Shown piece by piece: positions 4,976-25,167 of a DNA stretch of 64,000 nucleotides. Under the pieces are notes generated by a model. That model did not search any database, was not told the origin of the DNA, and was given only the letters and a program-made list of their open reading frames with translations. Position 1 is the stretch's first letter. The number at the start of each line of letters is the position of its first letter. The position numbers and the translations under genes are program-made. Source of the stretch: an uncultured Candidatus Saccharibacteria bacterium (GTDB lineage: Bacteria; Patescibacteriota; Minisyncoccia; Phycocordibacterales; UBA9973); NCBI GenBank assembly GCA_964441495.1, contig CAYTXV010000001.1:58851-122850 (forward strand). The letters run 5' to 3'.

Positions 4976-5281
4976 TTATTTTTTCTTTGCTTCCTTGCGC
5001 TTGACGGTTGGAGATTTCTTGGAAAGCACGTTCTTCTTTTTACCTTCTACTATCCCTGCCTTGACAAGCATGTTGTGCGCTGTTGGAGAGACCTGTGCAC
5101 CCATTTTGATCCAGTGCTGGATGCGCTCTTTGCTGAAAGAAACAGCATCGTTTTTGACAGTGTGAGAGCCGAGGATCTCGAGGAACTTGCCACTTTGCGC
5201 TGCGTTTTTGTGATCGGTCACCACCAAGCGAAAAGCTGGTTCGTTTTTGCGTCCGATACGTTGTAGTCTGATCTTTAACAT
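4976..5281 (-). CDS. rpsP: 30S ribosomal protein S16
   Basis: MLKIRLQRIGRKNEPAFRLVVTD... is a typical bS16 N-terminus. Confidence 0.95.
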   Translation of the reverse strand: MLKIRLQRIGRKNEPAFRLVVTDHKNAAQSGKFLEILGSHTVKNDAVSFSKERIQHWIKMGAQVSPTAHNMLVKAGIVEGKKKNVLSKKSPTVKRKEAKKK

Positions 5282-5347
5282 GTAGGCACGATAATAGCAG
5301 GGATTGTCAGATTATGCAATACAAAGACCTCATGTTAAAGTGTTTCC

Positions 5348-7279
5348 ATGGAAAACGTCTCTGTCGGGGCTGAGTATGAGGGCTCGATCAATATTTCAAC
5401 CAAAGGTATCGGCTTTGTAAAGATCCGCGATCTCAAGATCGCGATAGAAGTCCCTCGCGAAGCACTCAATCGCGCATTTCATGGTGACACAGTACGTGTA
5501 GAGGTGACCGAACTTGCAAATGCGAACCACGAAAACCCCTATGGCAAAGTGGTAGACATCACCCGCCGTGCAAAGGTTGGCTACTCTGGCACGCTCAGTT
5601 TCGAACAAGGCGCGCACTGTATCGTCACTAACGACGGTCGTATGTACACACCGATCACGATCCCACAGGAGAAACTCGGTGGTGCAAAGCAGGGTGACAA
5701 AGTGTTCTGCGCGATCACTGACTGGCCAGACCCGATGAGCTCTCCGACAGGTGAAGTCGTCAAAGTGCTCGGTAAGCCGCTCGAGAACAACGCCGAGATG
5801 CTCTCACTCGCACTCGAAAAGGGATTTGATAGCGACTACCCTCCTGCGGTTGCTGCAGAAGCTACTGCGATCAAAGCGCACGGCATAACTCCTGACGAAA
5901 TCGCACACCGCCGCGACTTTCGCCAGATCACAACGTTTACGATCGACCCCGAAGACGCCAAAGACTTTGATGATGCGATATCAGTACAGTTCTTGGATGA
6001 TGGCAAAGTAGAAATCGGTATACACATCGCAGATGTCTCGCACTACGTGCGTCCTGATACTGCGCTCGATGCAGAAGCGTACCGACGCGCGACAAGTGTC
6101 TACCTCGTCGACCGCACAATACCCATGCTCCCCGAAGCACTCTCGAACGACATGTGCTCACTCAACCCTGATGTCGACCGACTCACCATGTCTGCAGTGT
6201 TTATCATCGACAAAGACATGAAGATCGTCGATGAATGGTATGGCAAGACAGTCATACACTCACACCAGCGCTTCACATACGAGGGTGCACAAAAAGTACT
6301 CGATACAAAAGAAGGACCATTTTTGAAAGAGCTTGAAGCAGCGCTCAAGATTGCACAACACCTCGAAAAGGAACGCTTCAACAATGGCGCGATGGTGCTT
6401 GATACTGTCGAAGTGAAATTTAAACTCGATGAACACGGCGTACCGCTCTCTGCGTACGTCAAACAGCGCGGTCCGACACATCACATGATCGAGGAGCTCA
6501 TGCTCCTTGCCAACCGCAAAGTTGCAGAGTTCATCACCACTGGTGACAAAGACAACTCGCGCGTGTTCGTCTACCGCATCCACGATGCACCCGATCCAGA
6601 ACGTATGGAAGACCTCAAGGTGTTTCTCAAGCGTATGGGGTACACACTCCCTGTCGATGACGATGGCATCATCCCCGCGCGAGCGCTCAATGATCTCGTC
6701 CAGTCGCTCGATGGCAAACCAGAAAAGGAAACAATCCAAACCGCAATCGTCCGCTCAATGGCAAAAGCAATCTATAGCACCAAAAACATCGGTCACTATG
6801 GACTTGCATTTGAGTTTTACACTCACTTCACTTCTCCGATCCGTAGATACCCAGACACTGTCGTACATCGACTCCTCACCCACTACCTCGGCAACGGCAC
6901 CATCCCCAAAGAAATGTGGGAGTACTACGACAAAGTTTGCCAGCACTCATCAGTACGCGAAAAGGAAGCTGCAGATGCAGAACGTGCATCTATCAAATAC
7001 AAGCAGGTTGAGTACATGTCGACTCGTGTAGGCAAAGTGTTTGATGGCACAATCACTGGCGTATCTCCAAACGGTATATTCATCGAAGAAAAAGAAACTC
7101 GGTGTGAAGGCATGGCACGACTGCGTGACCTCGGGAGTGATTTCTTTGAGTACAACGAAAAGGAACTTGCCATCGTTGGTCGCAAAACACGCAAAACATT
7201 TCGCATCGGTGACACTGTCAGGTTCAAAGTCAGCAATGCCGATATCGTGAAGCGATTACTTGATTATGTACTGGTATAA
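5348..7279 (+). CDS. rnr: ribonuclease R (RNB family 3'-5' exoribonuclease)
   Basis: N-terminal cold-shock/OB region, RNB motifs (FTIDPEDAKDFDDAISV, IHIADVSHYV) and a C-terminal S1 domain. Confidence 0.9.
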   Translation: MENVSVGAEYEGSINISTKGIGFVKIRDLKIAIEVPREALNRAFHGDTVRVEVTELANANHENPYGKVVDITRRAKVGYSGTLSFEQGAHCIVTNDGRMYTPITIPQEKLGGAKQGDKVFCAITDWPDPMSSPTGEVVKVLGKPLENNAEMLSLALEKGFDSDYPPAVAAEATAIKAHGITPDEIAHRRDFRQITTFTIDPEDAKDFDDAISVQFLDDGKVEIGIHIADVSHYVRPDTALDAEAYRRATSVYLVDRTIPMLPEALSNDMCSLNPDVDRLTMSAVFIIDKDMKIVDEWYGKTVIHSHQRFTYEGAQKVLDTKEGPFLKELEAALKIAQHLEKERFNNGAMVLDTVEVKFKLDEHGVPLSAYVKQRGPTHHMIEELMLLANRKVAEFITTGDKDNSRVFVYRIHDAPDPERMEDLKVFLKRMGYTLPVDDDGIIPARALNDLVQSLDGKPEKETIQTAIVRSMAKAIYSTKNIGHYGLAFEFYTHFTSPIRRYPDTVVHRLLTHYLGNGTIPKEMWEYYDKVCQHSSVREKEAADAERASIKYKQVEYMSTRVGKVFDGTITGVSPNGIFIEEKETRCEGMARLRDLGSDFFEYNEKELAIVGRKTRKTFRIGDTVRFKVSNADIVKRLLDYVLV

Positions 7280-9979: not shown

Positions 9980-11833
9980 ATGGAACAAAAACAACAACCA
10001 ACACAACGAAAATCATTTTCAAAACCAAAGCGCTCATTTGGCAATCGTCGTTCATTTGACCGCGCACGCCGCCCAGCACATCCAGGACTCACTGCTGATG
10101 TGATGGCAGAGCCAGTAGATCGCAAGACAGCACACATCCCTGATCCAACACCGGGAACTATACGCATCATCCCGCTTGGTGGTGTCGAAGAAATCGGCAA
10201 AAACATGACCGCGATCGAGATCGGAGACGATATCATCGTCATCGATGCAGGTATGCACTTCTCCAACGAAGCAACGCCTGGCATCGACTACGTGATCCCC
10301 AACACACGCTACCTCGAAGAACGCAAAGGCAAAATCCGTGCGCTCATCATCACACACGGACACCTTGATCACATCGGTGGTGTACCACTCGTACTCTCAC
10401 GTATCGGCAACCCACCACTCTACTCTCGCAACCTCACCGTGCTTATGTGTCAGAAACGACAAGCAGAGTTCCCGCACCTGCCTCCGATGAACGCAATCGT
10501 CGTCGAAAACGACCAATCAATCACGCTCGGAAACATGAAGGTGCGCTTCTGGGGTGTGACACACACAATCCCTGACTCAATGGGTATCATCGTTGAGACT
10601 CCGTACGGCAACATCGTCACCCCTGGAGACTTCAAGCTCGACCAGATCGATGGTGTCGTTTCAGAGCGCGAAGAAGAAGAGTACAAGCAGTTTGACAATG
10701 CAAACAACCTCCTCTTGATGACTGACTCTACCAACATCGAAAACGAAGGGTTCTCGCTTGCAGAAATCAAAGTACACCAAGGTATCGAAGCGATTCTTCG
10801 TCGTGAGAAAAACAACCGCATCTTTATCGCAGCGTTCGCATCGCACATCACTCGCCTCATCCGTATCGTTGAGATCGCAGAAGAGCTCGGCAAAAAGGTC
10901 GTGGTCGAGGGTCGCTCGATGAAAACCAACATCGATGTCATCATCCAAGCAGGACTCCTCAAGCCACAAAAGGGGACAATCATCCCTGTTGAAGATATCG
11001 ACAAGTACCCACCTGATCGCGTCCTCGTACTCATCACAGGAGCGCAAGGTGAAGAGTTTGGTGCGCTCAACCGTGCGGCAAACAAAACCAACAAAAAGAT
11101 CTCGCTTCGCAAAGGCGATCGCATCATCCTCTCTGCATCTGTTGTCCCTGGCAACGAACGTGCAGTCCAAGCAATGAAAGACGGCCTTTCTCGACAAGGT
11201 GTGAAGATCATCTCATACCGCACTCCTGGCGAAGAATACGTCCACGCAACTGGTCACGGTAACAAAGAAGACATCAAATGGCTCCACCGCAAGATTCATC
11301 CCAAGTTCTTCATCCCGATCCACGGCCACCACTACCACCTCGAACTTCACAAAGAGCTCGCGATGGAGCTTGGCATGCCTGAGGCAAACATCGTTGTCCC
11401 TGACAACGGAACTATCATCGAGATAACCCATGAAGGCACCAAAATCGGTGTTCGCAAAGAAAAGGCACCATCGTCTCCGATGATGGTTGATGGGTTCTCT
11501 GTCGGTGACGAACAAAACGTCGTCATCCGCGATCGTCAGATGCTCGCAGAAGACGGTATGTTTGTTGTGGTTGCAGTTGTCGATAGCAAAAACGGACTCC
11601 TACGCAAAAGCCCAGATCTCATCTCTCGCGGATTTGTGTACCTCAAAGAAAACCAAGAACTCTTGAGACAAACACGTATCCTCGTCAAGCGCACAGTTGA
11701 AACTTCTTGGAAAAACATCAACCAAGCAGACCTCGATCCACTCAAAAACATCGTTGCAGAAACAGTGAGTAAATACTTGTTCCAAAAAACTGCAAAGCGT
11801 CCACTCGTGATCCCTGTTATACTAGTGTTGTAA
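9980..11833 (+). CDS. rnj: ribonuclease J (metallo-beta-lactamase / beta-CASP)
   Basis: HGHLDHIGG, beta-CASP motifs and a C-terminal domain; basic N-terminal extension. Confidence 0.9.
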   Translation: MEQKQQPTQRKSFSKPKRSFGNRRSFDRARRPAHPGLTADVMAEPVDRKTAHIPDPTPGTIRIIPLGGVEEIGKNMTAIEIGDDIIVIDAGMHFSNEATPGIDYVIPNTRYLEERKGKIRALIITHGHLDHIGGVPLVLSRIGNPPLYSRNLTVLMCQKRQAEFPHLPPMNAIVVENDQSITLGNMKVRFWGVTHTIPDSMGIIVETPYGNIVTPGDFKLDQIDGVVSEREEEEYKQFDNANNLLLMTDSTNIENEGFSLAEIKVHQGIEAILRREKNNRIFIAAFASHITRLIRIVEIAEELGKKVVVEGRSMKTNIDVIIQAGLLKPQKGTIIPVEDIDKYPPDRVLVLITGAQGEEFGALNRAANKTNKKISLRKGDRIILSASVVPGNERAVQAMKDGLSRQGVKIISYRTPGEEYVHATGHGNKEDIKWLHRKIHPKFFIPIHGHHYHLELHKELAMELGMPEANIVVPDNGTIIEITHEGTKIGVRKEKAPSSPMMVDGFSVGDEQNVVIRDRQMLAEDGMFVVVAVVDSKNGLLRKSPDLISRGFVYLKENQELLRQTRILVKRTVETSWKNINQADLDPLKNIVAETVSKYLFQKTAKRPLVIPVILVL

Positions 11834-13757: not shown

Positions 13758-13809
13758 ATAGCGCTATAGTAACACAACAAAAGCCCCTTTAGGGCCTTTG
13801 AAACTATTG

Positions 13810-14088
13810 CTATTTGATAAGTTCGCGAAACTGGTTTTTGGTAATGCTGTACTTTTTCATGATCTCTTTGGGGCTTTTGCCGAGCGCGAGATCTTTGGCA
13901 AATTCGGCAGGATCAATGCCGAGCTTGTGCGTGAGTCGTTCAAATCGTGAGGTGCTGTTCTGGTGGTACTTGGGACCTTGGACAACGTCTGTTGCGACTA
14001 TCTCTGGCATCGCTGCAGCTATCGCTCCAGTTGAGTTGAAGTAGAGTATATACGCAAGCAGACCACTCGTTGCGATGATTTTTTTCAT
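13810..14088 (-). CDS. small secreted protein (signal peptide), unknown function
   Basis: 92 aa beginning MKKIIATSGLLAYILYF...AAAMPE. Confidence 0.4.
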   Translation of the reverse strand: MKKIIATSGLLAYILYFNSTGAIAAAMPEIVATDVVQGPKYHQNSTSRFERLTHKLGIDPAEFAKDLALGKSPKEIMKKYSITKNQFRELIK

Positions 14089-14234
14089 AATGTTTCAAAA
14101 TGCAATTACTTGTAGTAGTTGTGTGGCACGTACCTGTGCGATCCATCGATGTGCCACATATATCCACTATACCATGCACCACCAGGTGGTAGTATTAGAA
14201 TTGTGAATTGAGAAAAGTCAATACTACGAAACCC

Positions 14235-14609
14235 TCATTTATCCAAACTCTTGGACAAACCACAGTAGTCATCTCTACCTTGTAGCCATACCGCACCAAG
14301 CGCTACAAGGAGCCCTATATCACGAATACCGACTGCAGTAAGTCCAAGTGTCCAAACAATCATCAAAAGATGAAGTACAAGTAATGGCACTACAAATCGT
14401 ACCCCTACACCAAACACAAGAAGTGATCCTGTGATGATTTCAAACACAGCGTTGAACAACACCCACGTCTCTGCAGACGCAACCTTGGTGAGAAACTCTG
14501 GGATAAGTCCAGTCCACATAGTTTGGTCATAGAGCTGCGTAAACCCAAACCAGAGAAACACAAATGCAAGTCCAGTCCGAAGGACAAGTGGCGCGTATGA
14601 TTTATACAT
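14235..14609 (-). CDS. DoxX family membrane protein
   Basis: 124 aa with 4 TM segments in a DoxX-like pattern (LRTGLAFVFLWFG...). Confidence 0.7.
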   Translation of the reverse strand: MYKSYAPLVLRTGLAFVFLWFGFTQLYDQTMWTGLIPEFLTKVASAETWVLFNAVFEIITGSLLVFGVGVRFVVPLLVLHLLMIVWTLGLTAVGIRDIGLLVALGAVWLQGRDDYCGLSKSLDK

Positions 14610-14620
14610 ATAAACTACTC

Positions 14621-15085
14621 TTATTTGGCAAGTGTGCCTATTTTATAACTTGCAAGGACTCGTTCTGGACCACCCTGTCCACCATGTTGTTCGTTAAACG
14701 ATTCAGAACTATCCTCTCCACACATACTCAAGATAGCGCGTGATCCGCCTGGGTGTTTGGAAACCCAACTCGTGAGGTTGTACACGCCACCATTAACAAT
14801 GGTCCAACAATCAGACTGACTGCTGTGTGTTGCAACTTGTGCTGCAGTATACGTCTTGGGACCTGCTGTTGGAGTACTTGTTGTAGAAGTAGTTGGAGTT
14901 GTTGTTGGTTTGGGCGCGACAGGAGTAGTTGTCGGGCGAACAGATTCGCTTGGAGCTGATGTTTGCTCTGAAGCAACCTTGCTTTCTTGATCTACCTTTT
15001 GTGCATGTTGTACACCTGCGATGACAAGCGCAATAACTATGACGAGCACTCCTACAATGGCGGTGATTGATTTGGTATTTTGCAT
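14621..15085 (-). CDS. membrane-anchored cytochrome b5-like heme-binding domain protein
   Basis: N-terminal TM helix, Pro/Thr-rich linker, then YTAAQVATHSSQSDCWTIVNGGVYNLTSWVSKHPGG, a Cyt-b5 signature. Confidence 0.65.
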   Translation of the reverse strand: MQNTKSITAIVGVLVIVIALVIAGVQHAQKVDQESKVASEQTSAPSESVRPTTTPVAPKPTTTPTTSTTSTPTAGPKTYTAAQVATHSSQSDCWTIVNGGVYNLTSWVSKHPGGSRAILSMCGEDSSESFNEQHGGQGGPERVLASYKIGTLAK

Positions 15086-15103
15086 ATGCCTTCCAGTATA
15101 ACA

Positions 15104-15529
15104 CTAAACACCGAGCCGGGTCTTTGCGAAGGATTTGACGATCTCATGACTTTGTTGCCATGCATGCCAGACTGAAGCAGTCCACAGACCGATCATCGCA
15201 TCGCGTTTGGCTCCGTGTGGCTCACGGACAACCGTCGCAGCAGTGATCGAGCCACGCTTCTGAGGAAATATCACCGCCGGCCACTGATGCGGCCCAGCCG
15301 CAAGCTGCATGTGCGCATCCTGGATCTGCCGACCGGTATAGTGATGCTCGACGTGTAAGTACAGTCCGACAAGCGCAAAGATGAGTGCGATCGGCTTGGT
15401 GTCGAGTGTCGCAGTCTGTGCAGTATATGCATCAACGATGTACTGATGCACGAACTGCTCATCGGCTCGATGCAATGTGTCTACTGACAAGAGATCATAT
15501 GCGATACGGTCACTACGAGATGCGTCCAT
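15104..15529 (-). CDS. hypothetical protein with HVEHHY motif
   Basis: Complete ORF; start chosen at MDASRSDR. No confident family assignment. Confidence 0.45.
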   Translation of the reverse strand: MDASRSDRIAYDLLSVDTLHRADEQFVHQYIVDAYTAQTATLDTKPIALIFALVGLYLHVEHHYTGRQIQDAHMQLAAGPHQWPAVIFPQKRGSITAATVVREPHGAKRDAMIGLWTASVWHAWQQSHEIVKSFAKTRLGV

Positions 15530-15618
15530 GGTGTAAGTATAGCGCAGTTTTGCTTTTGTGTTACACAAAAATTGACTTATTTATAAAATATTATATAATG
15601 ATTAAAAATCTATCGCGT

Positions 15619-16548
15619 ATGAAAAAGTTCTTTTTATTTGTAATACCAAATTTTATCTTCTTAGTATTTGCTACCGCGCAAACCAAAGTTTACAAGACAA
15701 ATCATTTAAACATTGGTTTTGGTAAAGCAAGTAATTGCATTGAAAACAATCTTCTAATTTTTTGCGTTAACGGACCACTTGTCGACTCTGTTCATTACCC
15801 TGTTGGTGGATACATTGACAACGGTATCCGGAAACAAAAATGGATTGATCCTTTAAAAGCTACTGGAAATTTTTCTGTTGATAACGCTGTATTTGGCTTA
15901 GGTACAAATGGAAATTTCTGTATGATACCTTATTCGGATATAGCATCACTACCAGCTCTCACATGGGGATTTCAAAATGGACCCATGTTGGTAAAAAATG
16001 GAAAAAATATTCGAGGAACCTCAACAACTAAGTATCCGCGCTCCGGTAAGGAACTTTATGATCAGGTTCAAGGTCAGGTAAAAAGCCAGGTACTACGAAT
16101 ACAAGAACCGAAAGAATTCGCTTTCACAAAGATGATGTCGTGTGGTCTATGCGACTCTGGGATCTGTGCAGATGAGAAGTTTAAGAAGCTTAAAGATGGA
16201 TCTGTGAATAGGCACGTTTACTACAGCTGTACGAAGTCAAAAGATAAGTACTGCAAGTGTGGGTACATAAACGAAGTAGACCTTATAGAGCAATTTGAGA
16301 AACTACTCGATCGCATCAATATCAGTGAAATCGGAATGAAAGATAAGATCAAATACGAGGTTGAGCGAATTAAGAAGTTTCAACAATCAGTTTTGAATAT
16401 TAAACAGCAGATACAAATCAAAGACGTAGATATAAGAGACTACGCTAAATTTATTTTAAAGGACGGAGCAATTGAAGAGAAACGAGAACTGCTTACTTGC
16501 TTTAAGAGTAAAATACTACTCAAAGAAAAACAGATATACATTAGCTAA
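15619..16548 (+). pseudogene. chimeric ORF: secreted phosphodiester glycosidase-like N-terminus (15619-16047) fused in frame to a large-serine-recombinase zinc-ribbon + coiled-coil C-terminus (16048-16548)
   Basis: The signal peptide and GTNGNF...QNGPMLVKNGK resemble DUF2233/phosphodiester glycosidase proteins. The 3' part, FTKMMSCGLCDSGICADEKF...YYSCTKSKDKYCKCGYINE, matches the recombinase zinc beta-ribbon and tail. The region is AT-rich. Confidence 0.55.
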
Positions 16549-16936
16549 AATTAACTACAAAGTTATACATCCCCATACCACAAACTCCTTGGAGTGGTTC
16601 TCCTGCCTTGGGTGTTCCTACATCAATCACTTCTTCTCCAGTTTGAGCTAATATCTTTTGATATCCCAATGACTTGATTACAAGTGATGAAGAACAGTCG
16701 TAAGTACCGTTTGTCTTCATAATTAGTTTTGTAGGAATCCCTGCTTTTGCGTTAGATAGTTTTGGGGAGTATCCACCTTTAGCATCGACGGTTATGTATT
16801 GAATTCCATCTCTTACCTCAACATTCTGCATAGCCTGTGTTGATGCAGTTTTATCGCTACCTTTCGAACCTACAAAAATAGTACCGATTCCAATAATGAG
16901 TCCGATAGTGATAATTGATAAAGCAATTTTATTCAT
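16541..16936 (-). CDS. cupredoxin-like secreted/lipoprotein (copper operon accessory)
   Basis: N-terminal signal/TM, then CSSSLVIKS...GVCGMGMYNFVVNF, a cupredoxin-type Cu-site motif. It is the last gene of the cop operon. Confidence 0.6.
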   Translation of the reverse strand: MNKIALSIITIGLIIGIGTIFVGSKGSDKTASTQAMQNVEVRDGIQYITVDAKGGYSPKLSNAKAGIPTKLIMKTNGTYDCSSSLVIKSLGYQKILAQTGEEVIDVGTPKAGEPLQGVCGMGMYNFVVNFS

Positions 16937-16944
16937 AAAGTTAA

Positions 16945-17952
16945 TTATATATTAAATAATGGATTGATAATTCCGAGTCCTGCCAAGCCAGCAAGTAGTG
17001 CGAATAGTCCAAGACCGATCACCACAACTCCTGCGGATTTAAAGAATAAAGGCGCATGTCTTCCGTGCGCGAACGACGCAGACCCGAACGAGAGAAGTAA
17101 AAGCACTGGTAACGTCCCGAGGGCAAAAGCTAGCATGATAAACATTCCTGAACCAAAAGATCCACTACCTAATGCGGAAACCTGCATTGATTGGGTAAAG
17201 CCGCACGGTAAGAAAAATGTGGCAAAACCGAGAATGAGTGGAGTAAACGTTTTATGCTCAATTCTCCTGAAGAAATTAAAGATTCCAGACGGCAGAGCAA
17301 TTTTGTTCTTTTTAAAAACTCCAACCAGATTCAAACCTAACGTGAGCATCACAAGCGATGCCAAAAGACCTAATATTGCCGTAAGGGTAAAATTAATGCC
17401 GATAGCACTTCCTACAGCGCCAAGCACCCCACCCAATATTGCAAAGCTGACAATTCTTCCTATATGGAAGAGTAGAAACGTTTTGGTATCGCTCACATTG
17501 TCTTGAGATATCTTTGCTGATAGAGACAAAACCAATCCTCCCACTATAGCAAGACAGCTTGAAACCGAAGCTATGAGCCCAATAATGAAGCTTGTGATTG
17601 GTGTGGTCTGCCCACCGATCCCAAGATTAAGAATTCCTGATTTCTGTAATAAAAAGAACAACACCAGGAAACCAAGTCCAATCGGGAGAGCTTTCCAAAT
17701 AACATCGTCACTTTGTTTTTCCTTGACCGTTTTTTCAACGGAAAGAATATAACCATTAGATTTGATTTTATCTGTCAGCATATCTGCTAATTTTTCAGAG
17801 GAATAATCACTGTCAGTTTCTATTTCCACAATTTCATTCTTCAGATTGACTCGTGCATTTTGTATGAAGTCTTGTTCATTCAAGACATCCTCGATCAAGA
17901 TTTTGCATGATGCACAATGCGTACCAGATACGTGTAATATGTGTGTTTTCAT
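16945..17952 (-). CDS. HMA-domain fused to TauE/SafE (DsbD_2-like) permease
   Basis: N-terminal MxCxxC-like HCASC metal-binding domain followed by about 8 TM segments. Confidence 0.7.
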   Translation of the reverse strand: MKTHILHVSGTHCASCKILIEDVLNEQDFIQNARVNLKNEIVEIETDSDYSSEKLADMLTDKIKSNGYILSVEKTVKEKQSDDVIWKALPIGLGFLVLFFLLQKSGILNLGIGGQTTPITSFIIGLIASVSSCLAIVGGLVLSLSAKISQDNVSDTKTFLLFHIGRIVSFAILGGVLGAVGSAIGINFTLTAILGLLASLVMLTLGLNLVGVFKKNKIALPSGIFNFFRRIEHKTFTPLILGFATFFLPCGFTQSMQVSALGSGSFGSGMFIMLAFALGTLPVLLLLSFGSASFAHGRHAPLFFKSAGVVVIGLGLFALLAGLAGLGIINPLFNI

Positions 17953-17954
17953 AC

Positions 17955-20249
17955 TTATAATTTCTTAGCTTTAATGCGAAGTGAGTTCGAGACTACGGAG
18001 ACCGACGACATCGCCATAGCAAATCCAGCAAAAATAGGATTCAAAAGCCAACCAAAGATTGGATAGAAAGCACCTGCCGCAAGCGGTATACCAACGATGT
18101 TGTATATGAATGCCCAGAAAAGATTCTGCTTGATTCCTCTCATGGTAATTTTTGAAAGCTTAATGGCTTTTACGAGCTTTGAAATGTCCCCTCCAAGGAG
18201 GGTGATTCCTGCCGACTCAATCGCGACATCCGTACCTGTTCCCATGGCAATACCGACGTCAGCTTGGGCAAGTGCGGGAGCATCATTCACCCCATCACCT
18301 GCCATAGCGACAATACGACCCTGTGACTGGAGCTCTTTTATTTTTTCAAGCTTATCTTGTGGTAATACATGCGCCACAATGTCATCAATACCAACGAGTG
18401 ATCCGATATACTTAGCGGCTTTTTCATCGTCTCCTGTAAGCATAACCACTTTTATGCCGAGAGCATGAAGACTTTTGATAGCCTCTACTGACTCAGCCTT
18501 TATTTCGTCTGCCACCATCACAAAACCGAGTACCTTCTCTTTGGTAGCAAGAATGACTGGTGTCTTTCCTTGCGAGGTAAACTCATTTAACCTATCAGCG
18601 TCAAATGAAATTTTTAGGTCGGTCACAAGCTTCGCATTGCCCACAAAATATTCAGTGCCCCTGATCTCTCCCTTGAGACCTTTTCCTTGTATTCCTGCAA
18701 AGTTTGAAACATCAGATATCGAGATATTTTTCTCCTGTGCGTAGTTTACGATTGCATGTGCGATCGGATGCTCAGATTTTTTCTCAAGCGAAGCGAGAAT
18801 TGAAAGAAGTTCATCATCTTTCAAGTTTGCGAGGTTTTGTATGTCGACAAGTGTCGGCTTTCCTTTGGTTATTGTTCCTGTCTTGTCGACCACAACTGTG
18901 TTTACCTTATGAAGCTTTTCGAGAGTAGCCGCATCTTTGATGAGAATTCCTTCCTTGGCACCTTTGCCGACTCCAACAATTATTGCAGTTGGAGTAGCGA
19001 GACCAAGTGCACATGGACAAGCTATTACTAGGATTCCCACAAAGGATACGAGACCGAATGAAAGTGCCTGAGAAAATCCTAGATACTGCGACCCAATAAT
19101 GAGCCATGCACCGAGGGTAAGAAAAGCGATTATAAGAACTATGGGCACAAAGATGGCTGATATTTTGTCTGCCATTGCCTGTATTGGCGCCTTGCTTCCT
19201 TGAGCATCTTCAACCATCTTTATGATCTGAGCGAGCAGTGTCTCTGAACCAACCTTTGTAGCTTTAAAGGTGAATGATCCACTTGTATTCATTGTGCCAG
19301 ATACGACATTGTCGCCAATCTTTTTCTGGGCAGGCATCGGCTCTCCTGTAACCATCGATTCATCAATAAAAGATGAGCCTTCAGTGATGACACCATCAAC
19401 AGGAATTTTTGAGCCTGGCTTCACGATAATCAGATCTCCATGCTTTACGTCGTTTACTGGAATCTCTATTTCCTTTCCGTCACGAACAACCAATGCTGTT
19501 TTGGCTTGAAGATTGAGAAGTTTCTCGATCGCATCACCAGTCTTAATTTTAGACCTGGCTTCGAGGTATTTACCGAGCGCAATAAAGGTAATAACCACTA
19601 TCGTCACGTCATAGTACTGGTACTCGACGTTAATAAACGGCTTAAGAACGTCCTCAAAAGCACTGACGGCGAAACTGTATAAAAAAGCGGCTACCGTACC
19701 GATACCAATAAGGGTATCCATATTCGCTTTGCCGTATCGGAGAAATCTATAAAAACCAAGGAGGTACGGCTTACCAACTACAAAAAGGATATAGGTGGCA
19801 AATATCGGGAGAAGATGATGAAAGAATTCCTTGAGTGTGTAGCTCATTGCAGGAACGATGCTGTACTCAGCGAGAATATCCCAACCCATAACGAAAGCAG
19901 CAAAAACTGCCAGAGGAATTGCAGAGAGCACTTTCGTCCGCATGTCCGCAACTTCATTGAGCTTCTCTTTCTTTGACTGATTCAATCCCAAGTGAGCCGC
20001 ATGCTCACTTTCAGACATACCCATCTCGTTCGCTGTCTCGGGGACATCGAGTGAATATCCGAGAGGTTCGATATGCTTAGAGAGGTCGTGAGGACTTATT
20101 TTTGAAGGATCAAAGGAAACCTTGGCCTTCTCCGTTCCATAGTTCACCTCTGCAGAATGCACACCATCAACTTTCTTAAATGTTTTTTCAATAACAGATG
20201 AACATGAGGCACAATGCATTCCTTTTACGTTGTATGTTTGTGTGTGCAT
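17955..20249 (-). CDS. copA: copper-translocating P1B-type ATPase
   Basis: HMA domain (GMHCASC), CPC motif (ACPCALGLATP), DKTGT, TGDD and GDGVNDAP motifs. Confidence 0.9.
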   Translation of the reverse strand: MHTQTYNVKGMHCASCSSVIEKTFKKVDGVHSAEVNYGTEKAKVSFDPSKISPHDLSKHIEPLGYSLDVPETANEMGMSESEHAAHLGLNQSKKEKLNEVADMRTKVLSAIPLAVFAAFVMGWDILAEYSIVPAMSYTLKEFFHHLLPIFATYILFVVGKPYLLGFYRFLRYGKANMDTLIGIGTVAAFLYSFAVSAFEDVLKPFINVEYQYYDVTIVVITFIALGKYLEARSKIKTGDAIEKLLNLQAKTALVVRDGKEIEIPVNDVKHGDLIIVKPGSKIPVDGVITEGSSFIDESMVTGEPMPAQKKIGDNVVSGTMNTSGSFTFKATKVGSETLLAQIIKMVEDAQGSKAPIQAMADKISAIFVPIVLIIAFLTLGAWLIIGSQYLGFSQALSFGLVSFVGILVIACPCALGLATPTAIIVGVGKGAKEGILIKDAATLEKLHKVNTVVVDKTGTITKGKPTLVDIQNLANLKDDELLSILASLEKKSEHPIAHAIVNYAQEKNISISDVSNFAGIQGKGLKGEIRGTEYFVGNAKLVTDLKISFDADRLNEFTSQGKTPVILATKEKVLGFVMVADEIKAESVEAIKSLHALGIKVVMLTGDDEKAAKYIGSLVGIDDIVAHVLPQDKLEKIKELQSQGRIVAMAGDGVNDAPALAQADVGIAMGTGTDVAIESAGITLLGGDISKLVKAIKLSKITMRGIKQNLFWAFIYNIVGIPLAAGAFYPIFGWLLNPIFAGFAMAMSSVSVVSNSLRIKAKKL

Positions 20250-20252
20250 AAA

Positions 20253-20528
20253 TTATTTTCTCTTTAGCTTATAAACTTTTAAAATCTCCTGTTTTGCTTT
20301 TTCGGTCTGTCCAGCCTTAACCTGATTCAGAATGCACCCACCAAGATGATTTTCAAGCAACAAATCTTCAATATTTGAAAGTGCTTGTTTGACTGCGGAA
20401 GTTTGGGTGATCACGTCAATACAGTAGGTGTCACTTTCGATCATCTTTTGCAGACCTCGAATCTGACCCTCAATGAGCTTGAGGCGACGAATGATTTTGA
20501 CCTTACTTTTGTCTTCCATATATTTCAT
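20253..20528 (-). CDS. csoR: CsoR family copper-sensing transcriptional repressor
   Basis: MKYMEDKSKVKIIRRLKLIEGQIRGLQKMIE...YCIDVITQ...ENHLGGC is the DUF156/CsoR signature. Start trimmed to the internal Met downstream of the operator. Confidence 0.8.
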   Translation of the reverse strand: MKYMEDKSKVKIIRRLKLIEGQIRGLQKMIESDTYCIDVITQTSAVKQALSNIEDLLLENHLGGCILNQVKAGQTEKAKQEILKVYKLKRK

Positions 20529-20537
20529 ACATAGTAT

Positions 20538-20561
20538 TATATACCCCCTGGGGGGTATATA
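20538..20561. promoter_or_regulatory. CsoR-type operator: GC-tract inverted repeat TATATACCCCC-T-GGGGGGTATATA
   Basis: Near-perfect 11/12-bp inverted repeat immediately upstream of csoR-copA. It resembles the B. subtilis copZA operator TACCC..GGGTA type. Confidence 0.6.
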
Positions 20562-20574
20562 GCAAGTCAAACAT

Positions 20575-20598
20575 AAAAGCACCCGATTGGGTGCTTTT
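20575..20598. terminator. bidirectional hairpin aaaagcaccc-gatt-gggtgctttt
   Basis: Perfect 10-bp stem flanked by A and T runs; it insulates the cop promoter from upstream transcription. Confidence 0.5.
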
Positions 20599-20880
20599 AT
20601 GTTCTGGATACTGCTCTCAGCAGGTATGCAATTTACAGTATAGTTGTCTCTTACTAGCCCTATCTTTGAGCTAGCTCAAGTTTGCTGGCTGTCGTGGTCT
20701 TGAACCTGCGTGATAAGACACCGTAAGGCTTTCTTGTGACCCCTTCTACTCCTTAGTCGAGGCGTCTCGGTCTCTAGGGTGTTTTTTCGCATCAAGCAAA
20801 CTAAGCGTATTTCACCCGTCTCGGTCACTGTCTCATTTTGAAATCAAGGCAGATTAAGGGTTCTTTGAAGAATAAGGGTG

Positions 20881-20936
20881 GTTTAGGAAAATGAGACAGA
20901 ATAAGACACTTTGGCGGTTATTGAAATCGTGTCTCA
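20881..20936 (-). terminator. possible terminator after the DHH gene
   Basis: 7-bp stem tgagaca/tgtctca with a long loop, followed on the minus strand by TTTTCC. Weak. Confidence 0.3.
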
Positions 20937-22193
20937 CTTTTTGGCGAAGTAAGCCTTGAGTAATGGCGTTACCTCCTTACGCATAATAAAATCTGATCGA
21001 ATTGCAACATTATCTTCAAAAGAAATGTTGAGCACCTTAGAAAGCACGTTCTTCATATGCTCATCATCGGATACGAACACATTGAAGCCGCCACCAAGAT
21101 CTATGAAAGAGATAAAGATATGATCCACACCTTCTTTTGATTTCAAGTCATTCAATATTTCAAACAGTTCATTCTTATGGGTTTCAACAAGTTGCTTAGC
21201 ATCCATCATTTCAAGCTGAGCGTAGCCAATCTTATTGCCAATTCCACCGAAATCGAACCAAGCAAAGTCAGCATCTACCGCTTGAGCAAGCCGGTCACCA
21301 TCCATATTGGACTTTGCGCGGAACATGTCGTCTATAAATTCCTTAGTGAGTCCGAGCTTTTGATTCAACCAATCAGCCATGAGTCGGTCGCGATCAGTCG
21401 TTACCTTCGCTCGGAAGTTGAGTGTGTTGGAGACGATTGCACCATAGAGCATGGTTGCTGTCGGTACTGAAATCTCTACATTATTCGCATGGAATTTCTC
21501 GGCAATAAGGGTAGCGGCCGAACCGACAAGCTCTATCTGAATCTTTGCGTTCTTGAACGCATCCGCATCATTGAACTTGCGGTGGTCAATGATTTCAACA
21601 ATATTCTCTGGCTTGATGAATTTATCGAGATCACGCAATTCACTGGCATCCGTAAGCACTACTTTTTCCAAAGAAGCGTTATTGTCCTCTTCGAAATGAA
21701 AGCCGAACTTCTCGACCAAATGTTGGACCTCAATATGTGGAGTACCAAAAATACGCACAACCGCAGGTGTGCCTGTTTTATTTAAAAACTCAGCATAGGC
21801 GACTGAACACGCATATCCGTCGAGATCGGGCTCGGTATAACTCGTTACGACCACTTCATGACTGTTGTCATCAATGACGAAATCAAGTTGTTCCGATGGT
21901 ATGCCGATGGACTGACCATAAGCGACTGCTTCGGACCACGTAGACTTGTCTGAGTGTTTGATTGAAAAATTCTTACCCTTATATACAACGAGCACATCAT
22001 CTTTGCCTGGCTCCCAGAAATGGATGTACCAAGGGCCATCAGCAAGATAATTGCCGATCTGCTTTGCCGTTTCCTCCTCGACCAAGACGTTGTGAAGAAT
22101 CCAATTGCCAGATTGCCACGTCTTCTCGATTTTTATTTCCGAGAGAATACTTTTATCTACCAAGCTATTTTCAACAATGGTTCCCTTGAGCAT
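20934..22193 (-). CDS. DHH/DHHA2 protein homologous to family II inorganic pyrophosphatase, with substituted catalytic motifs and a ~120-aa N-terminal extra domain
   Basis: DLDGYACSVAYAEFL and GSAATLIAEKF align to PpaC. The conserved DHN is DAS, DHH is DHR, and the Ser of DS is N. A DHHA2-like GGG motif is present; the N-terminal 120 aa have no recognisable family. Confidence 0.65.
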   Translation of the reverse strand: MLKGTIVENSLVDKSILSEIKIEKTWQSGNWILHNVLVEEETAKQIGNYLADGPWYIHFWEPGKDDVLVVYKGKNFSIKHSDKSTWSEAVAYGQSIGIPSEQLDFVIDDNSHEVVVTSYTEPDLDGYACSVAYAEFLNKTGTPAVVRIFGTPHIEVQHLVEKFGFHFEEDNNASLEKVVLTDASELRDLDKFIKPENIVEIIDHRKFNDADAFKNAKIQIELVGSAATLIAEKFHANNVEISVPTATMLYGAIVSNTLNFRAKVTTDRDRLMADWLNQKLGLTKEFIDDMFRAKSNMDGDRLAQAVDADFAWFDFGGIGNKIGYAQLEMMDAKQLVETHKNELFEILNDLKSKEGVDHIFISFIDLGGGFNVFVSDDEHMKNVLSKVLNISFEDNVAIRSDFIMRKEVTPLLKAYFAKK

Positions 22194-22195
22194 AG

Positions 22196-22744
22196 TTATT
22201 CAAGTGTGTACTCCCATCCTGGCTTCCACGACTTTGTCTTTCTCCAATCATTAGCTAGTGCTTCATCCCAAGTAAAACCCTTCAGCAAAACATCAAGCGC
22301 GAGCTGGGGTGCTTTATGTCCAACAAGAGCGACGTTTTTACCATCGTAATTCTCCTTGAGGAACTTTAAGAAATCATCTACTCGATTCTTAACATCTTCA
22401 TAACTTTCACCGTTTGGGAATGGTTTGAAATGCATTTCTTTCTCTTGGAGCGGTTCAACCTCCTCTGAAGGGTGGCCGTTCAAATCGCCGTAGTTGCATT
22501 CCCGAAGTCTCGCGTCAGGAATGATTTCGTACATATCACCCCACGCAAGTTCCGCTGACTTTCGTGCTCGTTGAAGATCAGAGCAAAAAACTACATCAAA
22601 ATGTTTGTCTTTGGTCTGCTCTTTAAGCGCAATTGATTGCTGTTCACCCAGCTCAGAAAGTGGTGCATCAGACCAGCCTGAGGAAATTTCATTCTGGTTG
22701 TCTACAGTCGTACCGTGAACAAAATAAGTGATTTTTACAGACAT
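22196..22744 (-). CDS. histidine phosphatase superfamily (phosphoglycerate mutase-like) protein
   Basis: ITYFVHGTT (RHG-type catalytic His motif region), ...GHKAPQLAL. Confidence 0.75.
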   Translation of the reverse strand: MSVKITYFVHGTTVDNQNEISSGWSDAPLSELGEQQSIALKEQTKDKHFDVVFCSDLQRARKSAELAWGDMYEIIPDARLRECNYGDLNGHPSEEVEPLQEKEMHFKPFPNGESYEDVKNRVDDFLKFLKENYDGKNVALVGHKAPQLALDVLLKGFTWDEALANDWRKTKSWKPGWEYTLE

Positions 22745-22748
22745 AAAT

Positions 22749-23216
22749 TTATTCGATATTCCCACCGTGATACCAACAACGGTATATTAATTCTCCATTG
22801 AGGTAAATATTTTCCTCACCAGAGAATCTGTCGAGTGCTCCTTCGACCTTGTTTGTATATTTGCTGTTCTCTAAAACGTATTCTTTTGGACCACGTACTG
22901 GAAGAATATCGTCATATTCTTGCATAAGCGCAGGTCGAAGAATTGTGTACGCATCCTTGGTAGAAATATCGGGATTCAGGACATGACCGTAATAGTTCAT
23001 TCCCCAGACTGGCGCGCCAGCTTTATAGACAACTTCCTCTCCTATAAAATCTCGAGCACCGAAGTACGTGTCGTGGTATGTAAGGTCTCTCTGCTCAAAG
23101 TGATAGTCCTCGGAAGACGGTCTTAGAGAGGTAGCCTTCGATGCTTCCTTATTCGCATATGTTGCCTTATTCGCGGCATTTAGGAATTTGGTGAGTTCCT
23201 CGTGCGAAATTTTCAT
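22749..23216 (-). CDS. hypothetical protein (DUF-like; YHDTYFG...PVWGMNYYG motifs)
   Basis: First gene of a 3-gene minus-strand operon, with an extended -10 TGGCATAAT 10 nt upstream of the ATG. Confidence 0.5.
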   Translation of the reverse strand: MKISHEELTKFLNAANKATYANKEASKATSLRPSSEDYHFEQRDLTYHDTYFGARDFIGEEVVYKAGAPVWGMNYYGHVLNPDISTKDAYTILRPALMQEYDDILPVRGPKEYVLENSKYTNKVEGALDRFSGEENIYLNGELIYRCWYHGGNIE

Positions 23217-23332
23217 ACAAGCATTATGCCATAAAATGAAGCTTATCTAAAGGGCTCTTTGTCTCCTTTTCTGTGAGGAGGAAAATATAGATACGGGGTA
23301 AAAACCGTGTTTATAAACTAGCCATAAAATAT

Positions 23333-23708
23333 ATGGAAATATCAAAAGAATTGCGCGAGAAGTTTCGAGAGGAATTTAAGAAGAAAGGCGCGGAGTATAC
23401 GGAAGCCGAAGAAACCGAGGCAATTAATAATCTGACTGGTTTCTTCGAGCTGATATACGACTTCGCCAAACGAGACACTATCTTGCACAAGAGATTGAAG
23501 AAAGAGCCGAAATCGAATCCCACAATGAGTTTCAAGAGTCGGTGCTAGGGCGAGAAGTTAAAGAAAAGATAAAGATCAAGGAAATCGACATCAGGAATTA
23601 TGCAAAACATATTTTAAGAAAGAGACCAATGTATGAGAAGCGAGAATTACTGAGTCATCTGAGAAGCAAGCTGGTGTTGAAGGAGAAGCAACTGACATTG
23701 GTGAAATA
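23333..23708 (+). pseudogene. frameshifted remnant of a large serine recombinase C-terminus (second copy)
   Basis: Frame A gives MEISKELREKFREEFKKK...INNLTGFFELIYDFAKRD. After a frameshift, ...AQEIEERAEIESHNEFQESVLGREVKEKIKIKEIDIRNYAKHILRKRPMYEKRELLSHLRSKLVLKEKQLTLVK. This is homologous to the tail of the 15619-16548 ORF (KFQQSVLNIKQQIQIKDVDIRDYAKFILKDGAIEEKRELLTCFKSKILLKEKQIYIS). Confidence 0.6.
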
Positions 23709-23718
23709 GTGAGCAAAC

Positions 23719-23753
23719 AAAAATCATCAAATGAATGGTGATTTTTGTTTTTT
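23719..23753 (+). terminator. hairpin plus T-run after the recombinase remnant
   Basis: aaaatcatca...tggtgatttt followed by tgttttttg. Confidence 0.4.
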
Positions 23754-23839
23754 GAGACTAGTTCGAGCCCATGACTGGTTCTCAAAACTATTCCTCCTAA
23801 ACAGCCGTTTTAGGCGTTTAGGTAGGTCTCACATGACTG

Positions 23840-23910
23840 CTGCCCGACAGGGACTCGAACCCCAATTTACGGTGCCAGAAACCGGCGTCCTACCATTAGA
23901 CGATCGGGCA
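23840..23910 (-). tRNA. tRNA-Gln (anticodon CUG)
   Basis: Hand-folded cloverleaf: U1-A72 acceptor tgcccga/tcgggca, D-arm, anticodon loop uuCUGgc, T-loop ttcgagt. CCA is not encoded. Confidence 0.8.
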
Positions 23911-24150
23911 AATTAAATTTTTTATAATTTGCTCTTTTAACACCCTTTGCTGTTTAACTTTCTTTTCGAAAGCTCTTGCCCCACTTTCTTGTGCAAATTC
24001 CTGGCTATGCACAAGAGTGAGTGGTATATGGTGCCTAGTCGAACTCACCATGCCAGCATTGTGTTGGTGCAACCTTCTTTGAATATCGTTGGTACTACCT
24101 ACGTAATACCAGTTTTTCTTAGAGGATTTGAGAAAATAAACGAACCACAT
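23896..24150 (-). CDS. GIY-YIG nuclease family protein (UPF0213/YhbQ-like)
   Basis: MWFVYFLKSSKKNWYYVGSTNDIQRRLHQHN matches the GIY-YIG signature. The 3' end overlaps the first 15 nt of tRNA-Gln. Confidence 0.75.
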   Translation of the reverse strand: MWFVYFLKSSKKNWYYVGSTNDIQRRLHQHNAGMVSSTRHHIPLTLVHSQEFAQESGARAFEKKVKQQRVLKEQIIKNLICPIV

Positions 24151-24154
24151 ATCA

Positions 24155-24200
24155 TTATCCTACCATTAGACCTGCCTGCGCAGGCAGGCGATCGGGCAAT
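24155..24200. repeat. second copy of the tRNA-Gln 5' half (about 25 nt) interrupted by an 18-nt GC-rich palindrome
   Basis: tcctaccattagac-CTGCCTGCGCAGGCAGGC-gatcgggca, versus the intact tRNA tcctaccattagac-gatcgggca at 23886-23910. Together these form direct repeats flanking the GIY-YIG ORF. Confidence 0.6.
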
Positions 24201-24243
24201 GATCGTGCGCCCTACTATACCGGAAAAATGGGCTTTTTTCAAC

Positions 24244-25167
24244 TTAGACGTTGAGATACTTGCGCACTGCAAGGATGCTCGAGATAGCGCCGAGCAGTAG
24301 TCCGATACCGAGCACTATGCCACCGATAGAAAAGATGTGTGAGATGTAGTAACTATAGATGTTGAACCCGAGCACATCTGTAGCGTGTCGTCCGAGGAAG
24401 TATGTGAGCGGGAGAAATATCGCAACAGAGATGAGAAATGCAAACACACCGTAGAGTAACCCTCCGACGATAAACGGTGCTCGGACGTACGACTCACTCG
24501 CACCAACAAGCTGCATGATACCGATTTCTTCTTTGGCAGTGTAGATAGTGAGGCGCACTGTCGTGTAGACGATCACGATAGAGATAAGCGCGAGCACAAA
24601 TGTCACTGCCCCGCCCACACTACGCGCGTTGCTGATGAGCATGTTGAGGCGATCGATCACGACCTTGTTCTGAGAATAGTTGATCCGTTCGATGATCGAT
24701 GCGTTGTCGCGCGCGATCTGACTGTCACCCTGGAGGACCTTGGCGATTGCTTCATACTGGGTCGAATCTTTTGCTTTGACAAGGAGTGAACCACCGAACG
24801 GATTGTCGCCAAGCTCATCGAGTGCTTGGAGCGTGAGGTAGTCATCTGCGTGCCTATCACGAAACGCGAGTACTTGTTCATCTGCTGAGGTGTAGGTCAC
24901 CGCTGCAACTTCGGGAAGTTTCTCGAGTGTCGCCTGGAGGTCAAGGATACTCTCCTCGGGTGCGTCAACGGTGAAGTACACCGCGATGTCTACCTTTTGC
25001 TGGACTTGCTCGATAGCATTACCCAGAAGTGCTTGGAACAGCAATATGCCGGTTGCAACACAGAGCGTGATCGTTGTCACCAGGATAGCCGCATAGGACA
25101 CAAGTCCATTTCGTTTGAAATTGTTCCATCCGCTCTTTAGTACTCGTTGTAGTCTGACCCAAAACAT
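24244..25167 (-). CDS. ftsX: cell division permease FtsX
   Basis: 4-TM FtsX topology with a large first extracytoplasmic loop, directly downstream of ftsE. Confidence 0.85.
   Translation of the reverse strand: MFWVRLQRVLKSGWNNFKRNGLVSYAAILVTTITLCVATGILLFQALLGNAIEQVQQKVDIAVYFTVDAPEESILDLQATLEKLPEVAAVTYTSADEQVLAFRDRHADDYLTLQALDELGDNPFGGSLLVKAKDSTQYEAIAKVLQGDSQIARDNASIIERINYSQNKVVIDRLNMLISNARSVGGAVTFVLALISIVIVYTTVRLTIYTAKEEIGIMQLVGASESYVRAPFIVGGLLYGVFAFLISVAIFLPLTYFLGRHATDVLGFNIYSYYISHIFSIGGIVLGIGLLLGAISSILAVRKYLNV

Follow-up and report, generated by a model that had tools for sequence, protein, structure and literature searches.

The window, that is, the whole 64,000-nt stretch of DNA analysed here (contig CAYTXV010000001.1, from an uncultured Candidatus Saccharibacteria bacterium), carries a compact locus of interest at 20934-23216 on the minus strand. 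Three co-directional open reading frames (ORFs), A, B and C, lie there head to tail, as a first-pass annotation of the same DNA had reported, with gaps of 4 nt between A and B and 2 nt between B and C. Homologues at E < 1e-40 number in the hundreds for each, and all three genes are therefore genuine; the sources of the homologues are named 'Patescibacteria group' and 'Paceibacterota'. The third gene, C, encodes an in-frame fusion of two proteins that are otherwise independent, and is the main subject of this analysis. Throughout, labels of the form L### denote related loci and those of the form P#### related proteins. The features of the transcription unit are:

23223..23251, minus strand: promoter-like site TTTAGA-17-CATAAT, found by consensus scan, ending 6 nt ahead of the DUF5680 ATG
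22749..23216, minus strand: gene A, 155-aa DUF5680 protein (Pfam PF18931, 7.7e-33)
22196..22744, minus strand: gene B, 182-aa protein of the histidine-phosphatase superfamily, branch 1 (Pfam His_Phos_1, 1.3e-32)
20934..22193, minus strand: gene C, 419 aa, composed of the three parts that follow
21870..22193, minus strand: N108 module, gene C residues 1-108, a complete copy of a free-standing 108-aa Patescibacteria protein
21855..21869, minus strand: five-codon bridge D-N-S-H-E, the left junction, defined by base-level comparison with L055, L056, L001 and L004
20934..21854, minus strand: DHH half, gene C residues 114-419, a full-length DHH/DHHA2 protein (Pfam, alignment and clade profile)

Pfam assigned residues 114-253 of gene C to DHH and 289-414 to DHHA2, and left residues 1-113 without assignment. 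No match to these N-terminal 113 residues was found in Pfam, NCBIfam, PHROGs or PADLOC. When they were used as a query, 190 proteins were recovered, nearly all of them free-standing and 107-110 aa long, with E values down to 1e-38 and coverage of 94-100%. These proteins end in EQLDF(V/I)I(E/D) followed by a stop codon, and share the invariant motifs GTI(I/V)ENSL, DGPWY(I/V)HFW and QLDF; the window copy, whose ATG lies 2 nt past the stop codon of gene B, retains all invariant columns. The N-terminal extension of about 120 aa that had been described as belonging to no recognisable family thus comprises about 113 aa without a Pfam match, but represents an entire member of a 108-aa family that is normally free-standing. 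The 120 homologues listed for the DHH half are nearly all 304-328 aa long, cover residues ~113-419, and start with MK(T/V)VVTSYTEPD. None of 119 non-identical DHH homologues, including 90%-identical ones, carries the N-terminal extension, and the fusion was seen in this genome only (cluster size 1, one contig). What had been called the gain of a novel domain is therefore a singleton fusion of two genes.

The junctions were located by comparison with free-standing relatives. At the left junction the window reads ATGAAG-TGGTC where the relatives read ATGAAGGTNGT (ATG AAG GTN GTN...). The ancestral DHH ATG (21859-21857) overlaps the bridge and is one base out of frame; the upstream ORF therefore runs into VVVTSY. 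At the right end the relatives read TTYGCN followed by TAA or TAG, and the window reads TTCGCC AAA AAG TGA GACACGATTTCAATAA, in which the GACACGATTTCAATAA stretch is what trails the 108-aa gene in L055 and L056. The DHH half accordingly closes with two extra Lys codons and a TGA taken from the 3′ flank of N108. Homology between the window and L056 stops at 21897, the 3′ end of N108, and restarts at 20941, just past the DHH stop. The DHH coding sequence is thus embedded, with the frame preserved, in the two final codons of N108; the stretches within 20900-21900 on which the fusion depends are ATGAAGTGG and GCCAAAAAGTGA. The ratio of nonsynonymous to synonymous substitution rates (dN/dS) was 0.091 for the N108 half against L055.

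The fused DHH gene has no promoter box, start frame or stop codon of its own; a TATACT box, missing from the window copy, precedes the free-standing DHH genes in L001 and L004. The sole promoter-like box of the unit is the one directly upstream of gene A, and it is likely, from its position, to mark the start of a leaderless operon transcript. Co-transcription of the three genes, which the first-pass annotation had claimed, is likewise likely, given the 4-nt and 2-nt gaps and a promoter-like box upstream of the first gene alone. Motifs resembling Shine-Dalgarno (SD) sequences precede 4 of 37 genes in the window, and at least 15 of the 37 have a TATACT or TATAAT box ending 6-11 nt before the ATG (for instance upstream of the gene starts at 11833, 15085(-), 25167(-), 25863(-), 36091(-), 53634(-) and 59673(-)). 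This combination of closely placed boxes with few SD motifs indicates that leaderless mRNAs are probably widespread in this genome. A single transcript would then start at A, with termination-reinitiation coupling accounting for translation of gene B and of the fusion ORF. As initiation would be mostly leaderless or coupled, the DHH half would be made only within the fusion.

The DHH half was aligned residue by residue with Bacillus subtilis PpaC (1K23) and other solved pyrophosphatases (PPases), and key columns were counted over the best 120 of its 859 matches. Like the family II PPases PpaC and T. commune 9M0M, the clade combines DHH and DHHA2 in about 306 aa, and the window protein aligns with the solved enzymes end to end, in keeping with the alignment to PpaC through its signature blocks noted earlier. 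Its scores assign it to the DHH superfamily's subfamily 2 (30.3 bits against PF01368, cut-off 28.1, 5.6e-7; 40 bits against DHHA2 PF02833, cut-off 27, 6.2e-10). Against NF003877, the NCBIfam equivalog of family II PPases, it scored 159.3 bits, below the 283-bit cut-off. The key columns are:

PpaC H9: window Y119; Y in 113 of 120
PpaC D13: window D123, kept; 118 of 120
PpaC D15: window D125, kept; 119 of 120
PpaC D75: window D182, kept; 120 of 120
PpaC H76-N77: window A-S; in the clade A or S, then S
PpaC D96: window D203, kept; 120 of 120
PpaC H97: window H204, kept; 120 of 120
PpaC H98: window R205; R in 120 of 120
PpaC D149-S150: window N256-T257; N in 120 of 120, T in 120 of 120
PpaC K205: window A311; A in 114 of 120
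PpaC R295: window R405, kept
PpaC K296/K297: a single window K406, kept, with one residue deleted

The alignment confirmed all three motif changes that had been proposed for this protein, DHN to DAS, DHH to DHR and DS to NT. In addition, SRKKQ is shortened to MRK-E. DHN (motif II), DHH (motif III) and the C-terminal SRKKQ form the signature of family II (PMC3022644, PMC11210485), and with DAS, DHR and MRK-E the window protein does not carry it. In family II enzymes the equivalents of His9, Asp13 and Asp75 bind metal M1, and those of Asp15, Asp75, His97 and Asp149 bind M2 (bioRxiv 10.1101/2025.02.25.640086). Four of these six ligands are kept (D123, D125, D182 and H204). The other two are replaced, H9 by Tyr and D149 by Asn, both still able to ligate metals, and two phosphate contacts (H98 and K205) are changed. 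The earlier statement that the metal-binding motifs have been lost is therefore overstated; it also overlooked the H9 to Tyr and K205 to Ala changes.

At columns at least 95% conserved in the clade the window copy showed no deviation (0 of 54), and dN/dS of the DHH half against its nearest relative, L001, was 0.047. Because the substitutions are near-invariant throughout the clade and dN/dS is low, the window gene is not a decayed copy. As judged from the aligned sequences, the substitutions are a subfamily signature under purifying selection, not a sign of degeneration. For the same reasons a catalytically dead protein, one of two outcomes that the first-pass annotation had predicted, is unlikely, while the other, a repurposed enzyme, accords reasonably with the active site.

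A profile of the clade matched family II PPases over the full length (7e-50). Its matches to yeast PPX1 (7e-7) and to a cyclic-dinucleotide phosphodiesterase (1e-3) were far poorer, the former being weak and partial. By these comparisons the clade is classed as an uncharacterised offshoot of the family II PPases, marked by a conserved signature peculiar to it, in Patescibacteria and DPANN. It shares the DHH and DHHA2 domains with prunes and PPX1-type exopolyphosphatases. Active prunes carry DHR in motif III, and exopolyphosphatases have Asn at the position of PPase His9 (PMC3022644); since both features occur in active enzymes, neither DHR nor a residue other than His at position 9 alone means inactivity. 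Prunes, however, compensate with DHH in motif II (PMC3022644), whereas motif II of the clade is D(A/S)S, without His, so that the prune-type combination of DHH in motif II with DHR in motif III is absent. The Asn in motif IV occurs in none of the three described groups, prunes and PPX1 having Asp there (PMC3022644). Among other members of the clade, P0040 has an N-terminal Peptidase_S51 domain, and P0014 and P0114 have C-terminal extensions of ~130-160 aa without annotation. A literature search on DHHA2 in Patescibacteria found no papers.

The other half of the fusion, N108, was modelled by AlphaFold2 with a mean predicted local distance difference test score (pLDDT) of 95.3. A Foldseek search of the model against PDB and BFVD returned nothing at E <= 0.001, and comparison of the N108 profile with PDB sequences gave noise only. 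A likeness to DisA/diadenylate-cyclase domains was rejected as too weak (E 0.08, TM score 0.41). When searched exhaustively by profile, N108 proved to have 623 relatives. In the 60 longest of the top 150 matches, N108 was C-terminal in 57 cases, and 36 of these 57 share one architecture: a signal or transmembrane segment, a Ser/Thr/Pro-rich stretch, a transmembrane helix, a Lys-rich stretch and a coiled coil, followed by N108. Sporadic fusions to GNAT, ASCH, NUDIX, MazG, methyltransferase, GrpB, NYN, glyoxalase, CutA1 and PemK domains were also observed, and matches of the fusion partners to defence models were likewise sporadic. In L005, N108 is joined to a cupin domain in a single uninterrupted 200-aa ORF (5001-5603), a stop-less run-on like that in the window, and in-frame N108::cupin fusions are also present in proteins P0195 and P0124. 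N108::cupin in L005 and N108::DHH in the window thus show different C-terminal enzymes captured in different genomes. From the spread of fusions among its relatives, N108 is classed as a promiscuous accessory module, usually the predicted cytoplasmic C-terminal domain of membrane-anchored proteins.

The first-pass annotation treated the three genes as a triad; it named a search for their co-occurrence as a check, and their never occurring together elsewhere as a refutation. We screened 7 loci of the DHH clade, 50 N108 loci from species-representative genomes, and 81 DUF5680 loci from metagenomes together with L056, ~138 in total. DHH-clade loci L001-L004 were searched by tblastn for A, B and N108, and the other three by lists of Pfam-annotated neighbours. 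Neither A, B nor N108 lay beside the DHH-clade gene at any of the 7 loci, where the neighbours were variable accessory genes (NUDIX twice, cupin twice, GrpB, ThyA, NTP_transf_6 and MliC among them). No DHH or DUF5680 gene was found within 5 kb of N108 at any of the 50 N108 loci; a phosphatase of the B type lay directly upstream of N108 at two of them (L005 and L031), and 77 of 91 flanking ORFs were singletons. No DHH-clade gene accompanied DUF5680 at any of the 81 loci, which did contain N108 in two cases and an adjacent B-type phosphatase, in either order, in ~10. At L056 the order is DUF5680 (94% identical to A), a histidine phosphatase, and N108 (82% identical) ending in a stop codon; at L005 it is tRNA-Gln, B and N108::cupin. 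The triad is therefore absent from all ~138 related loci, and so does not survive the test that the first-pass annotation set for it. What recurs is a loose cassette of DUF5680 and histidine phosphatase, sometimes with N108, and DHH is no part of it.

The two other genes of the unit score above the Pfam gathering thresholds of their families. Gene A scored 113.4 bits against PF18931 (gathering score 25) and has 779 homologues, most of them 153-157 aa long. The motifs YHDTYFG and PVWGMNYYG, which had been picked out in it, are present and invariant across the DUF5680 family. Its AlphaFold2 model (pLDDT 94.6) has an N-terminal helix and two four-stranded antiparallel beta-meanders; Foldseek found no match to it in PDB or BFVD at E <= 0.001, and the DUF5680 profile gave noise only against PDB sequences. 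A resemblance of DUF5680 to chorismate lyase/UTRA was rejected as too weak (TM score <= 0.28). Structure prediction of gene A and of the N terminus of gene C, which the first-pass annotation had suggested as a route to their identity, thus gave confident models but no significant fold match for either. A literature search on DUF5680 found nothing relevant.

Gene B scored 113.5 bits against His_Phos_1 (gathering score 21.7). It was listed as 22196-22765, but relatives place its true start at the ATG at 22744 (MSVKITYFVHG...). Like the branch 1 enzymes PhoE (1EBB), TIGAR-like 3E9C and CobC, it has the fold, the nucleophilic His, the second Arg (LQRA), the Glu (RE) and the second His. Unlike them, it has Val in place of the hallmark arginine before the nucleophilic His, as alignment to 3e9c and 1ebb showed. 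The partner is therefore not of the RHG type, as had been supposed: it reads V-H-G, and YFVHGTT is kept in all nine full-length close relatives. The VHG subfamily in Patescibacteria includes window gene B and genes of L005, L031, L060, L092, L112, L125 and L132. The middle position of L056 is occupied by another phosphatase with a canonical RHG, 28% identical to gene B.

These observations lead us to conclude, with a fair degree of assurance, that gene C is probably a lineage-specific in-frame fusion within a loosely conserved cassette, in a variable tRNA-adjacent region, with a DHH half from a clade that resembles family II PPases but is non-canonical. The cassette would form a compact, co-transcribed and probably leaderless unit in a low-GC stretch of the chromosome next to tRNA-Gln, and a complete DHH gene would have landed in frame in the end of N108 to give one 419-aa N108::DHH protein. 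Probably the clade is not a true inorganic pyrophosphatase, nor is it a dead protein. Most likely it has remained a phosphoesterase with a binuclear metal centre and an altered preference for metal and/or substrate, because the ligands are retained or conservatively replaced, the new residues are invariant, and prunes and PPX enzymes provide precedents. A fitting substrate would be a short polyphosphate, or else a phosphoanhydride or phosphoester derived from a nucleotide. Speculatively, N108 would tether or regulate the enzyme in the fusion. A bolder version, possible but rather doubtful, is that N108::DHH is a functional chimera, that N108 is a plug-in regulatory or ligand-binding module captured repeatedly and in frame by cupin, NUDIX, GNAT, MazG and DHH proteins, and that the clade is a new class of DHH subfamily 2 with a substrate other than pyrophosphate. 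Its binuclear centre, containing Tyr and Asn, would then recall the ligand sets of purple acid phosphatases.

Several points weigh against the preferred interpretation. The fusion is known from one assembly and its in-frame status hangs on a single base; the neighbouring divergent gene is broken, so that the locus may be in decay, and the fusion may have arisen by accident and lack a function; and the combined loss of H98, K205 and D149 could mean that catalysis is lost and ligand binding retained. Two ORFs might have been merged by an error of one base in the assembly, or by an inactivating indel of recent date, leaving in reality a separate 108-aa protein and either a DHH protein initiated at an internal GTG (V114) or a fresh DHH pseudogene. 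The ancestral ATG is indeed exactly one base off frame, the in-frame GTG would give a 306-aa product of the usual length, and the assembly is of the metagenome type; a singleton fusion beside a broken gene is what keeps weight on this account. We nevertheless regard it as unlikely. If the base is restored, N108 still has no stop codon and runs 27 codons into the DHH gene, which itself remains without a stop codon of its own and without a promoter box. The frame is kept at the two junctions over ~920 nt, each half retains all its conserved residues, and G/GG is not the kind of homopolymer that is prone to errors. In a leaderless genome poor in SD motifs, the internal GTG lacks both an SD motif and a 5′ end, and N108::cupin fusions exist in frame in the genomic DNA of L005 and in P0195.

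It is more improbable that the clade is simply the soluble inorganic pyrophosphatase of the organism, with the substitutions as tolerated variation. Its full-length collinearity with family II PPases, the retention of the R295 and K296/7 equivalents, and the lack of any other PPase among the large ORFs of the 64-kb window (ppa and hppA were judged there only) would fit such a role; many members are annotated accordingly by JGI, and several sources say 'manganese-dependent inorganic pyrophosphatase'. The shortfall against the NF003877 cut-off argues otherwise, as do the replacement of four of ten canonical catalytic residues (two metal ligands and two phosphate contacts), the alteration of DHH as well as SRKKQ, the defining signatures of family II (PMC11210485), and accessory rather than housekeeping neighbourhoods (NUDIX, cupin, GrpB). 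Least probable of all, and very much so, is the model of the first-pass annotation, a conserved mobile triad in which an active phosphatase and a dead DHH protein with a sensor domain serve signalling nucleotides or anti-defence. It drew on three genes packed tightly on one strand, on the altered DHH, DHN and DS motifs, and on a low-GC setting beside tRNA-Gln with a weak recombinase-like ORF; the best fold matches of N108, though not significant, are moreover to diadenylate-cyclase domains. Yet the triad was found at 0 of 81, 0 of 50 and 0 of 7 loci, the 'novel domain' is a fused independent gene in a fusion unique to this genome, the substitutions are clade-wide, under purifying selection and accompanied by four of six metal ligands, and the supposedly active partner lacks the RHG arginine. 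PADLOC models matched none of the four parts of the locus, among which gene B alone matches a PHROG, a family without assigned function, and the DisA likeness is sub-significant. A signalling-nucleotide or anti-defence module is thus not borne out.

Compared with PpaC, the clade keeps D13, D15, D75, H97 and the R295/K296 region, and differs in H9 to Tyr, H98 to Arg, D149 to Asn, K205 to Ala, D(A/S)S for DHN and MRK-E for SRKKQ. Its genomic context is accessory, and the window copy stands behind an extra 108-aa module. CBS-domain family II PPases likewise carry an accessory or regulatory domain on the family II scaffold. In those enzymes, however, CBS/DRTGG domains are inserted inside the DHH domain, occur in many species and bind adenine nucleotides, whereas the window module is N-terminal, of no recognised fold class, and a singleton.

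The active site of the clade can be defined by the signature Y...D(A/S)S...DHR...SNT...A...MRK. Databases already list clade members, with names that are generic or probably wrong, and hundreds of Patescibacteria and DPANN proteins named 'manganese-dependent inorganic pyrophosphatase' are likely misannotated. Because four canonical catalytic residues are gone, and conservedly so, such proteins should not be counted untested as PPases in metabolic reconstructions. N108 is a confidently folding 108-aa module without detectable structural relatives, widely fused in candidate-phyla bacteria; both it and the clade signature appear to be undescribed in the searchable literature. The three-gene arrangement, being a one-off, is of little general significance.

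Three further features border the unit:

23839..23910, minus strand: tRNA-Gln(CTG), found by ARAGORN and Rfam, 91% identical by blastn to L005
23333-23548 / 23333-23700, plus strand: remnant of a broken divergent gene, an intact 159-aa Cys-rich version of which lies beside the cassette in L056
20663..20941, minus strand: non-coding 3′ flank, 87% identical by blastn to L056 3980-4258 (280 nt) and 73% to L005 4099-4242

The first 63 aa of the broken gene are 92% identical to L056; the frame is then lost, and the C-terminal part lies in another frame. The tRNA-Gln borders the cassette, and the same tRNA precedes B-N108::cupin in L005. An 84-aa GIY-YIG ORF (23896-24150, minus strand) overlaps the 5′ end of the tRNA by 15 nt on the same strand, and a 14-nt exact direct repeat, TCCTACCATTAGAC, occurs at 23888 and 24158 on either side of this ORF. 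One flank of the locus consists of PrfB, FtsE, FtsX, the GIY-YIG protein and tRNA-Gln, and the other of CsoR and CopA; farther out lie RNase R, RNase J, LigA, GatA and SMC. The flanks are thus chromosomal Patescibacteria genes.

GC content in the region is 0.39-0.44, against 0.46-0.50. The locus had been placed inside a putative island. A low-GC variable region beside tRNA-Gln is indeed present, but no direct repeats flanking the cassette were found in 20200-24300, and the Zn_ribbon_recom match of a 387-aa ORF at 15385-16548 is weak. A low-GC block at 13800-20600, which may be an island remnant, contains genes for copper handling (CopA P-type ATPase, CsoR-type repressor, HMA-DsbD_2 protein and cupredoxin) and also cytochrome b5-like, DoxX and DUF5946 genes.

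The 3′ flank follows directly after the N108 stop in L056 and after the DHH stop in the window. It includes an element of ~145 nt (20683-20826, minus strand; ...GAGACCGAGACGCCTCGACTAAGGAGTAGAAGGG...CAGGTTCAAGACCACGACAGCCAGCAA) that is also present at L056 4100-4258, L057 ~810-968 and L005 4099-4242. The element is more conserved (87%) than the adjoining genes and is followed by different genes in three genomes. A repeated attC-like recombination site was considered and rejected, the element being single-copy in the window and present at 3 of 140 loci. No match to it was found in Rfam. RNAalifold predicted 35 pairs, five of them compensatory, from three sequences only, and the element may represent an undescribed small RNA of these Patescibacteria.

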